Positions 45,258 to 47,791 are shown, numbered from the stretch's first letter. The stretch is DNA of 64,000 bases from an uncultured Bacilli bacterium (GCA_910589375.1 CAJUTK010000002.1:323188-387187); one strand, 5' to 3'. Notes: generated by a model from the sequence alone, not told the origin. A program made the numbers and translations.

Positions 45258-45758
45258 ATGAAAAAAAATACACGATTAGACACTAGAGCATTTGTGCTAA
45301 TAGAAACTTTATTAGTTTCTTTGACAATTGCTGGGATTTTGCTTTATATGTATGTTCAATATGCTAGAATAACAGATTCTTATCACAGATTATCTCGTTA
45401 TAATTCAGTCGAAAGTTTGTATCGTACCAGTAATATTAAAAGAATACTATTAATGAATGTAAAAAGGCCTTTTTATGATAAAGTAAAGTCAGGTTCTGGA
45501 ATCTATCAAATTACTAGGGAGACAAAAATAGAAGGTTCTACTATCAGTCTACCAGAGTGGAGAGAGTTTTGGGATGATATGGATATATCTATATTATATA
45601 TAACAAAGGGAAATGCTAATCTTAATAATTTAGAGGCGTCTTTTTCTCCTTTTATAAAGACTATATCTACAGATGATGGTGCATCTTATCGTATTATTGT
45701 AAAGTATGGAGATGGAAATTTTGCAACCATTTCTTTTAAGGAGGCAACAAATATATGA
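45258..45758 (+). CDS. minor pseudopilin-like protein (divergent N-terminal hydrophobic segment AFVLIETLLVSL)
   Basis: 166 aa; overlaps the downstream pilin gene by 4 nt; divergently oriented to the pilB-like gene. Confidence 0.55.
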   Translation: MKKNTRLDTRAFVLIETLLVSLTIAGILLYMYVQYARITDSYHRLSRYNSVESLYRTSNIKRILLMNVKRPFYDKVKSGSGIYQITRETKIEGSTISLPEWREFWDDMDISILYITKGNANLNNLEASFSPFIKTISTDDGASYRIIVKYGDGNFATISFKEATNI

Positions 45759-47791
45759 GAAAGACAACAGAAAGAGGTTTTACAGTAGTAGAATTATTAA
45801 CTTCTTTCACATTAGCATCTGTGGTTATGATTTTACTATTTAATATTTTAATAGCTGTAAAAGCAGATTATGTAGAAGATAAAATAGAAACAGAGTATAA
45901 TGCTCAACAATCTTTACTTTCTCATGCTTTAAATAAGGATGCAACGAATTGCTCTTTAAGTGCTATGACAAAAACTGGAAATACTTTTTTACTTTCTTTT
46001 ATGAAAAGTGATACTTGTTCTGGAGGTAGTAAAACCCTAAAAGTAGAAGAAACTAAAATTACTTATAATGGTAAAGTATACGAATTTCCAGATGGAGTAA
46101 CAATTGATGTAAGTGGAAGTTCAGCAAAAGAAGGGGATATCAGTGGTATCCAATACTTTTTCTTAAAAATTCCTATTACTATGAATATTTATTCTACTGG
46201 TGAAACAAGAAAATTGGACATAACTTCTTTTTATACAAAGAAGTATGTAGCACCACCAAAACCTAGAAATACTTATAAAGTCATTTATACAGATGGAGTA
46301 GATAGTGTAGTATATTTCCCTGATCAAGTAACAGAATTAAAGGCAGGAGAGAACACTCCAGACTTTAAAGGAAATCCAACAAGAGCAGGCTATATATTTA
46401 GAGGCTGGTCTCCAACTGTAAATCCGGTTGTATCATCAGGGGATGCGGATAGCGATGGAAATATCATTTATACTGCAACTTGGCAACGAGTTGATGAGCA
46501 ACATCAAACAGAAGATTGGATTGTAATTGACTTTGATACGAATACTTGGTCTATCAATTCTAGTGGCCAAGGAAATTTGACACCTAAAAGTGGTTCTTTA
46601 TCTGCTTCTAATCCAGTAGTTACTTACGGATATAAAAAAAGAGCAACTTGGGGAAATTATTATTATGATACCTATCCAAAGGCGGATCCAATTATATCCT
46701 ATGAGTATGGTTCAGGAATTTCTAATGTGGCACGTGTTACTACTGCTGTTCATACACAAGGAACCACTACGGATGATTTTGGCGGCGTCTATAGGGGAGC
46801 TCGTACAACCTTTGAGGGGTTGAAAGCTGGACATGTAGATATTGTTGTAAGAAGTGTTTATGATATAACAAAAGTTACCTCAGCTAGTGGGAGCAGTATA
46901 ACTGGAGTAACTACTATTCCTGCTCAATATACTCATTTATTTCATGTTGAGGTGAGACAATCTAATGCTACGTATACTGTATCTTATACAGATGGAGTAT
47001 CAGGACAAGTAATTTTCCCTGATGAAAGCTATGAAGGATTAAAAGCAGGGGAGACGACCCCACCTTTTTCTGGAGGAACACCAACAAGATCTGGATATAC
47101 CTTTATGGGTTGGGCACCAGCGGTTAGTTCTACTGTACAAGGGGATGTAACTTATGTTGCAACTTGGACGAGCAATACTGCTCCTACAACTTATTTAGCT
47201 AGTCTTTGGTATAATAAAAGTAGTAATCTTGTAAACACATCAGAGTTGTGGGATCAAATTAATAATTGGCCTGGTAGTGTTAATAATTTAAGTGGATCTA
47301 CTTCATCTATTACAACAAGAGTTAGTAGTCAAATTCCAACACTTTCAGGGTATGTATTTAAAGGGTGGTCACTATCCCAAAATGGTGCTGTGCAATATCA
47401 GCCAGGCGCTTCTATTACAATAACAGGCACGCCCAACACAGCTAATATTACTAGACTGTATCCTGTTTGGGCAGTAAATGCACCATCTGATGCGCTTTCC
47501 ATGTCGGTATCTACCAATATTGCAAATCCTACTGTAGGACAACAAGTTAGATATACTGTAACAATTACTAATAGTTCAAGTGTAGCTGCTAGTATTTGGC
47601 TTAGAGCGGACTTAGATGGAAAAGTAGCCTATGTATCTTCTTCTGATAATGGAAGCTATAATACAAGTTCCCATACTGTAAATTGGTCCAATATTAATAT
47701 TCCAGCACATGGCAGTAAATCAGTAACCATGTATATTAACGTAACTGCGGCTGGAAATATTAATACACAGTTTGAGGGAGATGCTTATTAA
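45755..47791 (+). CDS. large type IV pilin-like adhesin: class III signal peptide, pilin-like domain, three Listeria-Bacteroides (Flg_new) repeats and a C-terminal DUF11 domain
   Basis: ERGFTVVELL prepilin motif; repeats ...AGYIFRGWSP...IYTATW, ...SGYTFMGWAP...TYVATW and ...SGYVFKGWSL...LYPVWA; DUF11-like GQQVRYTVTITNSS...NWSNINIPAHGSKSVT. Confidence 0.75.
   Translation: MRKTTERGFTVVELLTSFTLASVVMILLFNILIAVKADYVEDKIETEYNAQQSLLSHALNKDATNCSLSAMTKTGNTFLLSFMKSDTCSGGSKTLKVEETKITYNGKVYEFPDGVTIDVSGSSAKEGDISGIQYFFLKIPITMNIYSTGETRKLDITSFYTKKYVAPPKPRNTYKVIYTDGVDSVVYFPDQVTELKAGENTPDFKGNPTRAGYIFRGWSPTVNPVVSSGDADSDGNIIYTATWQRVDEQHQTEDWIVIDFDTNTWSINSSGQGNLTPKSGSLSASNPVVTYGYKKRATWGNYYYDTYPKADPIISYEYGSGISNVARVTTAVHTQGTTTDDFGGVYRGARTTFEGLKAGHVDIVVRSVYDITKVTSASGSSITGVTTIPAQYTHLFHVEVRQSNATYTVSYTDGVSGQVIFPDESYEGLKAGETTPPFSGGTPTRSGYTFMGWAPAVSSTVQGDVTYVATWTSNTAPTTYLASLWYNKSSNLVNTSELWDQINNWPGSVNNLSGSTSSITTRVSSQIPTLSGYVFKGWSLSQNGAVQYQPGASITITGTPNTANITRLYPVWAVNAPSDALSMSVSTNIANPTVGQQVRYTVTITNSSSVAASIWLRADLDGKVAYVSSSDNGSYNTSSHTVNWSNINIPAHGSKSVTMYINVTAAGNINTQFEGDAY

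Follow-up and report, generated by a model that had tools for sequence, protein, structure and literature searches.

A 64,000-nucleotide stretch of DNA from an uncultured Bacilli bacterium (GCA_910589375.1 CAJUTK010000002.1:323188-387187), referred to here as the window, carries on its plus strand a gene at 45755..47791 (ATG start, stop codon included) whose 678-residue product is very probably a modular pilin. Modular pilins consist of an N-terminal pilin module, a short linker and one or more domains that are not specific to type IV filaments (PMC8179133). In the window protein a pilin module at residues 1-164 is followed by the linker VAPPKPRN, three Flg_new (Listeria-Bacteroides) repeats and a DUF11 domain. 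To judge from its orthologues, the arm of about 500 residues was grafted recently, and in this lineage only, onto a conserved minor pilin that is otherwise bare. On balance we favour the explanation of a modular minor type IV pilin located at the tip of its filament, with an arm for attachment.

The gene is preceded by a strong Shine-Dalgarno sequence (AAGGAGG, 9 nt 5' of the ATG at 45755), and this ATG and the stop codon of a 166-residue gene upstream share 4 nt (ATGA), a sign that the two genes are translationally coupled. The open reading frame (ORF) was found intact on at least 14 contigs that had been assembled independently (JGI, ENA and Logan), always with the 166-residue gene upstream and a convergent Gate-family gene downstream. 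A whole-protein homology search was dominated by InlB B-repeat proteins and yielded only four true full-length relatives, P0001-P0004, of which P0001 is identical to the window protein, P0002 is 90% identical and P0003 83%. The ratio of nonsynonymous to synonymous substitution rates (dN/dS) was calculated by region from the comparison of the window with P0002, where dS is about 0.7. It was 0.03 for the pilin module, 0.06 for repeat 1, 0.06 for the middle domain that follows it, 0.23 for repeat 2, 0.18 for repeat 3 and 0.15 for DUF11. The extension as a whole, at 0.12, is under purifying selection and therefore functional, and repeat 1 and the middle domain are its most constrained parts. The GC content at third codon positions in the extension (0.197) matches the genomic background (0.191 +/- 0.027, codon-position GC), so its higher total GC is due to amino acid composition, and horizontal acquisition from a GC-richer donor was ruled out on the same grounds. 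The whole ORF is thus native coding sequence under selection; the recurrence on so many contigs with the same flanks, the dN/dS pattern and the codon usage rule out an assembly or frameshift artefact. A promoter and terminator scan of 45000-48000 returned nothing above shuffled expectation.

The N-terminus, MRKTTERG|FTVVELLTSFTLASVVMILLFNILIAV, has the layout of a class III signal, with a short charged leader ending in Gly (residues 1-8, 45755..45778), Phe at +1, Glu at +5 and about 20 hydrophobic residues; cleavage by prepilin peptidase is predicted after G8. None of the 11 aligned orthologues departs from G8, F9, T10 or E13, and each is matched by the Pfam N_methyl profile (PF07963) at E<=0.1 (best 4.1e-6). 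TIGR02532 was not among the NCBIfam matches of the 678-residue protein. The mature module (45779..46246, residues 9-164) comprises a hydrophobic alpha1-N segment, a long helix, a beta-sheet and a conserved Cys66/Cys88 pair. Its structural model has the long N-terminal alpha1 helix packed on an antiparallel beta-sheet, as a type IV pilin requires, with a GspJ-like fold of the globular domain; model confidence (predicted local distance difference test, pLDDT) falls to about 60 at the Pro-rich linker (46247..46270, residues 165-172), where the stand-alone orthologues end. On the strength of this model, the pilin-like domain proposed in the initial annotation is best described as a complete minor-pilin module of J type (GspJ/PilW/ComGF-like). 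The gspJ (TIGR01711) and ComGF (NF041002) profiles gave no match to the 678-residue protein at E<=1, a profile of the 11 orthologues gave none among PDB sequences at E<=10, and Foldseek returned none with the pilin-module model.

The evidence for the graft lies in the relatives of this module. Among the matches listed, those outside the species-level clade (about 20 proteins and loci) are all stand-alone pilins. The database proteins have 147-185 residues, and the ORFs read at nine loci of GTDB species representatives have 164-173 residues in nine of nine cases; these nine genomes are 'uncultured Bacilli' or mis-binned gut metagenome-assembled genomes from rabbit, mouse and other sources. At least three further metagenome loci hold ORFs of 151-212 residues, of which the 151-residue one runs off its contig and the 212-residue one is a distant relative; metagenome locus L024 duplicates L005. 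The L005 contig is fully syntenic with the window, in the order dnaG-sigA-trmK-yqfQ-pilC-pilD-pilB-small pilin-X-Gate-...-mutS-two pilins, and its slot X encodes a 173-residue protein. In the alignments the orthologues stop at or a few residues from Y164, where the window protein goes on into VAPPKPRN and repeat 1. Protein searches with the 170-residue module or its profile missed P0001-P0004, though these are identical in that region, so word-indexed protein search may under-report longer, modular relatives; the stand-alone claim rests mainly on ORFs read from the DNA loci.

Domain annotation bore out the families assigned to the extension by the initial annotation, with Flg_new (PF09479) at 43.6 bits over three stretches (cut-off 27) and DUF11 (PF01345) at 35.5 bits over residues 581-671 (cut-off 24.6). 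The NCBIfam models agreed, with TIGR02543 at 49.3 bits over three stretches (cut-off 20.95) and TIGR01451 at 24.1 bits (cut-off 24). Three repeats of about 70 residues had been described; three are indeed present, but they are not contiguous, as a 160-residue domain separates the first from the other two, and the third is divergent and about 95 residues long. A purpose-built hidden Markov model (HMM), made from the repeats of the related InlB B-repeat protein P0005, placed them at residues 173-244 and 406-473 with a weak core at 509-555. Repeat 1 (46271..46486, residues 173-244) scored 57.8 bits against this HMM and has its best TIGR02543 stretch at 208-244, and repeat 2 (46970..47173, residues 406-473) scored 85.2 bits. 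Repeat 3 occupies 47192..47470 (residues ~480-572), with an HMM core at 509-558 and the best Pfam stretch at 521-558. By their 'TYTVTYTDGV...GW...ATW' pattern, repeats 1 and 2 are of a subtype known from large InlB B-repeat surface proteins of gut Firmicutes, and they are 39-42% identical to the repeats of large sortase- or membrane-anchored proteins of this kind.

The beta-rich middle domain (46487..46969, residues 245-405) matched no Pfam or NCBIfam family, and in an exhaustive HMMER search against 1.84 billion representatives its orthologue was the only full-length match. Its last ~60 residues resemble Ig/PKD-like repeat units, and for residues ~331-398 there were matches (E 6e-23 to 8e-4) to units that recur in large repeat proteins. 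A further candidate relative, P0130, was discarded as low-complexity noise. We also rejected the possibility that the domain consists of two degenerate 80-residue Flg_new repeats, since the repeat HMM with all filters off gave no match there and BLAST only bridges the region at near-random identity.

The C-terminal DUF11/CLIPPER beta-sandwich (47495..47767, residues 581-671) is the sole confident part of the full-length AlphaFold2 model (pLDDT ~75 over residues 580-675). The top Foldseek match of this part was the CLIPPER domain crystal structure 9IFR (E 2.7e-5, template modelling score 0.61); carbohydrate-binding beta-sandwiches of CBM2 type scored about equally, and a phmmer search of the region against the PDB gave chance-level matches only. 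The first strand reads ALSMSVSTN and no lysine occurs between residues 555 and 622, so the lysine of the CLIPPER isopeptide bond is absent, while candidate Asp (D619 or D621) and Asn (N668 or N670) residues can be picked out by eye. Some DUF11 domains are known to be without the isopeptide bond (PMC12617251). The protein ends in ...NINTQFEGDAY without a hydrophobic tail, and thus has neither the LPXTG-type signal nor the transmembrane tail of a sortase-anchored adhesin.

The distal part of the arm varies between strains. In P0003 (L019, 3491-5488) repeat 3 is replaced by a different repeat (dS 0.8-1.06, dN ~0.57), whereas the flanking modules are nearly identical to those of P0002 (dS 0.03-0.09), and this contrast in the sequences indicates cassette exchange. 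The fourth relative, P0004 (787 residues; L018, JGI 3300006145 contig Ga0080708_1002447, 1-7910), tracks the window pilin to residue ~453 with 97.7% DNA identity. At a breakpoint inside repeat 2 corresponding to window position 47113, the sequence changes to the tail of another surface protein, one with a C-terminal transmembrane anchor, and a sortase gene stands downstream in place of the Gate gene. P0004 is either a repeat-mediated mis-assembly (chimera) or a real recombinant between the pilin and a sortase substrate.

Taken together, the features of the protein suggest the following mechanism. The J-type module would be cleaved after Gly8 by the A24 prepilin peptidase encoded nearby, and through its hydrophobic alpha1 helix the mature module would join a minor-pilin priming complex with the co-translated upstream pilin. 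This complex would end up at the tip of a filament that the neighbouring ATPase and platform protein assemble, and the Pro-rich linker would carry the extracellular arm of one Flg_new repeat, the 160-residue beta domain, two further Flg_new repeats and the terminal DUF11/CLIPPER-like beta-sandwich. Built like the stalk of a fibrillar adhesin, the arm most likely projects a binding surface outward to a ligand in the gut; this surface may lie in the middle domain, which is under strong constraint, in the terminal beta-sandwich or in both. Incorporation into a filament appears likely; the modelled J-type fold and the conserved, translationally coupled partner make display at the tip plausible, and by analogy with known tip pilins we consider it probable. 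Adhesion is the likeliest role of the arm, argued from analogy and from the surface-protein character of the domains, although taken by itself we see an even balance for and against it; the label adhesin given in the initial annotation goes beyond the stalk-type domains from which it would be drawn.

The initial annotation had also held that pilins carrying large surface-adhesin modules are uncommon, and this was overstated. We take IPR013378 to be the Listeria/Bacteroides repeat (PF09479) and IPR001434 to be DUF11 (PF01345). The catalogue of Raynaud et al. 2021 comprises 1,219 modular pilins in 264 architectures, and its Dataset S1 already includes these repeat types: IPR013378 follows the pilin motif twice in 9 proteins, three times in 2, five times in 1 and once in 1, at least 14 proteins in total have only IPR013378 repeats after the motif, several have mixed architectures, and one combines the pilin with IPR001434 (PMC8179133). 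These pilins (IPR012902-IPR013378 and IPR012902-IPR001434) share the design and the module families of the window protein; none of them has been characterised, and the combination of Flg_new, middle domain, two Flg_new repeats and DUF11 is not listed. Its sub-threshold N_methyl score might cause the window protein to be missed by such a screen. Within the literature library that was searched, no publication deals with a Flg_new-bearing type IV pilin. The modular-pilin design is thus already known and the protein is a clear example of it rather than a new kind of system; what is new here is the particular architecture, the J-type carrier and the clear evidence of a recent lineage-specific graft.

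Among characterised systems, the modular pilins PilB and PilC lie in the streptococcal PilA-PilB-PilC tip complex and mediate adhesion, and among HIJK subunits J interacts with I and K in the tip complex (PMC8179133, PMC9934059). Streptococcus sanguinis PilB carries a vWA module and PilC a lectin (PDB 7B7P is listed for the pair), whereas the window protein has Flg_new repeats, the middle domain and DUF11 instead, so no ligand can be predicted from its modules. Its arm is also longer (about 500 residues, five units), neither pilin has sequence homology to the window protein, and the PilM/N/O/T genes of S. sanguinis were not found among the window ORFs scanned. The J subunit of the type II secretion system (T2SS), GspJ/EpsJ/XcpW (PDB 2RET, 3NJE, 3CI0), is 6-8% identical in sequence to the module, which is not matched by the gspJ HMM. 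GspJ has no C-terminal extension, and the monoderm host lacks the T2SS outer-membrane secretin. Minor pilins of the HIJK type are required for filament assembly. CofB of enterotoxigenic Escherichia coli and TcpB of V. cholerae are tip subunits that start pilus assembly and offer a binding surface (summarised in PMC8179133). These are trimeric subunits of the type IVb pili of diderms, their extra domains are not Flg_new or DUF11, and no homology to the window protein was detected. The CLIPPER/InlB B-repeat fibrillar adhesins (PMC12617251) have the same stalk-type domains as the arm, yet they are anchored by a C-terminal LPXTG signal or transmembrane segment and not by an N-terminal pilin module, and they contain a tandem stalk in place of a single distal DUF11 without the isopeptide lysine. 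Like the window protein, ComGF of the competence (Com) pilus, a type IVd pilus, belongs to a set of four minor pilins in a minimal monoderm filament (PMC12153270), and the subunit order reported there suggests that it holds a J-like position in the Com tip complex. ComGF lacks an extension, its profile does not match the window protein, and the window locus is not a comG operon.

The filament genes of the window are distributed over three sites. The upstream partner of the modular pilin is a 166-residue minor pilin (45258..45758, plus strand) with the motif ...TRA|FVLIE..., and in each of the 11 related loci examined a gene of its family lies directly 5' of the J-like one. The partner orthologues read [RK]G|F[LIV]L[MIV]ETL in 11 of 11, and the window copy has Ala instead of Gly at -1; its N-terminus has a weak ComGD-like match (E 0.0065). 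The peptidase, ATPase and platform genes all lie within 5 kb of the pilin gene, an arrangement kept in related contigs. The assembly ATPase of the PilB/GspE/ComGA class (43606..45147, minus strand, divergent from the pilin pair; PF00437 417.9 bits) scored 486.8 bits for GspE, 473.8 for PilB and 264.5 for ComGA (cut-off 300), all below the equivalog cut-offs. It lacks the GspE/PilB N-terminal domain, as its matches start at profile position 105 (GspE) and 177 (PilB), and it ends in a highly acidic or charged tail of ~120 residues. The A24 prepilin peptidase is encoded at 42782..43576 (plus strand; PF06750 116.3 bits, PF01478 54.5 bits). The platform protein of the PilC/GspF/ComGB class (40797..42779, plus strand; PF00482 173.4 bits in two stretches) scored 277.5 bits for GspF over residues 255-654 and 147.5 bits for ComGB (cut-off 240). 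Its conserved core begins at residue ~255, after an N-terminal extension of ~250 residues with hydrophobic segments and a Lys/Glu-rich low-complexity stretch.

Two further pilin genes, at 55834-56421 (195 residues) and 56429-56947 (172 residues) on the plus strand, score 30.8 and 28.6 bits for N_methyl, above the cut-off. With the motif ...RG|FTLVE and the same place after mutS in related contigs, they probably belong to the same filament as the 678-residue pilin. Directly 3' of this pair, within 55834-58250, a 424-residue protein is encoded with CAP/YkwD and Big_2 domains and a weak EF-hand/dockerin-like C-terminus. The pilin pair followed by a Big_2 protein also occurs in the related contigs L001 and L005, and the CAP domain was seen in L001. 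The fifth pilin, of 124 residues (13089..13463, plus strand; N_methyl 26.8 bits), is ComGC-like (E 1.6e-10, 41 bits, cut-off 75) and by its size is a candidate for the major subunit. Its gene is far from the assembly genes and stands alone between a two-component system (response regulator 10986-11657, histidine kinase 11629-13026), which it directly follows, and a ThiF-family gene. The window thus holds one small pilin (124 residues) and four others (166, 678, 195 and 172 residues), the same tally as in Com pili and in the G plus HIJK sets.

Apart from these, the window encodes ComEA (SLBB and HHH domains, 34172-34813), ComEC/Rec2 (34740-36794) and SpoIIP (15497-16366), the last of which suggests a spore-forming lineage. 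Downstream of the pilin locus, three ORFs without a family match (48828-50405, 50853-51107 and 52133-53176) share the repeat Y-x-A-P-D-G-S-x-W-x-S-E-x-E-Y-Q-x-Y in five, two and one copies, respectively, and related contigs keep this gene set in the same place.

Several of these observations weigh against a tip-located adhesive pilin. The N_methyl score is 15.8 bits for the whole protein and 18.2 for the module alone (cut-off 21.2), so the class III signal called genuine in the initial annotation has the canonical motif and its invariant residues but falls short of the profile threshold. Glu5, which K subunits lack, is kept in all five pilin-like proteins of the window, and no K-like capping subunit was identified among them, nor could H- or I-type partners be recognised. 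No recognisable ligand-binding domain was found in the extension, and in fibrillar adhesins Flg_new and DUF11/CLIPPER domains typically make up the stalk or act as spacers (PMC12617251). The full-length AlphaFold2 model, built from three close sequences, has a mean pLDDT of 33; at full length, the structural check proposed earlier was thus usable for the DUF11 sandwich only. The organism is known from metagenomes only. Besides, ComEA and ComEC lie about 6 kb upstream of a minimal machinery, and the filament may therefore be a DNA-uptake pilus.

This last point leads to the explanation that the filament is a competence pilus and the protein its ComGF equivalent, whose extension captures DNA or serves as a spacer beyond the envelope rather than as an adhesin. 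The gene content is Com-like, with the four machinery functions and five pilins. As in type IVd pili, the set amounts to an ATPase, a platform protein, a peptidase and five pilins, with no PilM/N/O/T among the window ORFs scanned; the ATPase resembles ComGA in its missing N-terminal domain, and the best match of the 124-residue pilin is ComGC. Moreover, DNA is bound at the ComGD-ComGF interface at the tip of the Com pilus (PMC12153270). Against this, the ComGA, ComGB and ComGC scores are below the equivalog cut-offs, the ATPase and the platform protein score higher against GspE/PilB and GspF/PilC, and the genes are scattered with no comG operon in the window. We know of no DNA-binding role for Flg_new or DUF11 domains, and the replacement of repeat 3 between strains is typical of exposed adhesins. 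With every machinery protein below the NCBIfam equivalog cut-offs, no PilM/N/O/T among the ORFs scanned and ComEA/ComEC nearby, the filament may be the competence pilus of the lineage. We consider a DNA-capturing or spacer role in place of adhesion unlikely, and it is in part compatible with an adhesive arm, as one filament could serve both functions.

A second explanation takes the pilin-like N-terminus as a signal-anchor or export signal only, so that the protein would be held in the membrane or released on the surface and never polymerised. The sub-threshold N_methyl score agrees with this, as do the bulk of the ~55-kDa cargo for a filament subunit and the construction of the extension, which is that of sortase-anchored fibrillar adhesins and which in P0004 is joined to such a tail beside a sortase gene. 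However, residues 1-164 are more than a signal sequence and form an entire globular pilin domain whose orthologues are bare minor pilins and whose dN/dS of 0.03 marks very strong constraint, Glu5 is invariant, and the gene is coupled to a partner pilin and adjoins assembly genes. Bulk is no obstacle in itself, as the modular pilin PilB (50.5 kDa mature) is assembled into pili (PMC8179133). An anchor that never enters a filament thus appears quite improbable. That the long ORF is an artefact in which a pilin gene of ~170 residues was fused to part of a neighbouring surface-protein gene, as relatives of ~170 residues throughout and the probable chimera P0004 with its break in repeat 2 before the sortase locus might suggest, is hardly credible given that uninterrupted versions of 100%, 90% and 83% identity come from independent samples and assemblers, that dS of ~0.7 with low dN continues across the junction and the extension, and that codon usage matches the genome.

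Within the preferred explanation of a modular tip pilin, a more specific history can be imagined, which we regard as decidedly speculative and rather unlikely. In this scenario, the lineage would have no type IV filament but a minimal Com-like one, encoded near comEA/comEC, and its J-type tip pilin would recently have been turned into a fibrillar-adhesin-like protein that exchanges repeat cassettes with sortase-anchored proteins of the same genome, and the junction of P0004 in repeat 2 and the swapped repeat 3 of P0003 would be traces of this traffic. If true, the sortase and type IV filament display systems would share a pool of adhesin modules, and a competence-type pilus would have been re-purposed for adhesion.

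The general picture of type IV filaments is unchanged by these findings. The locus offers a natural before-and-after case of the origin of a modular pilin, as the same syntenic slot holds a bare pilin of ~170 residues in related genomes and one with an added arm of 500 residues in a single clade. The known carriers of effectors are the K-type cap, a PilY1-like partner and the streptococcal PilB/PilC. If the tip location and the adhesive role are true, an effector can be borne by a J-type subunit within the conserved tip complex, type IV filaments can take over stalk domains from fibrillar adhesins, and the 160-residue middle domain is a candidate for a new binding module of gut commensals.

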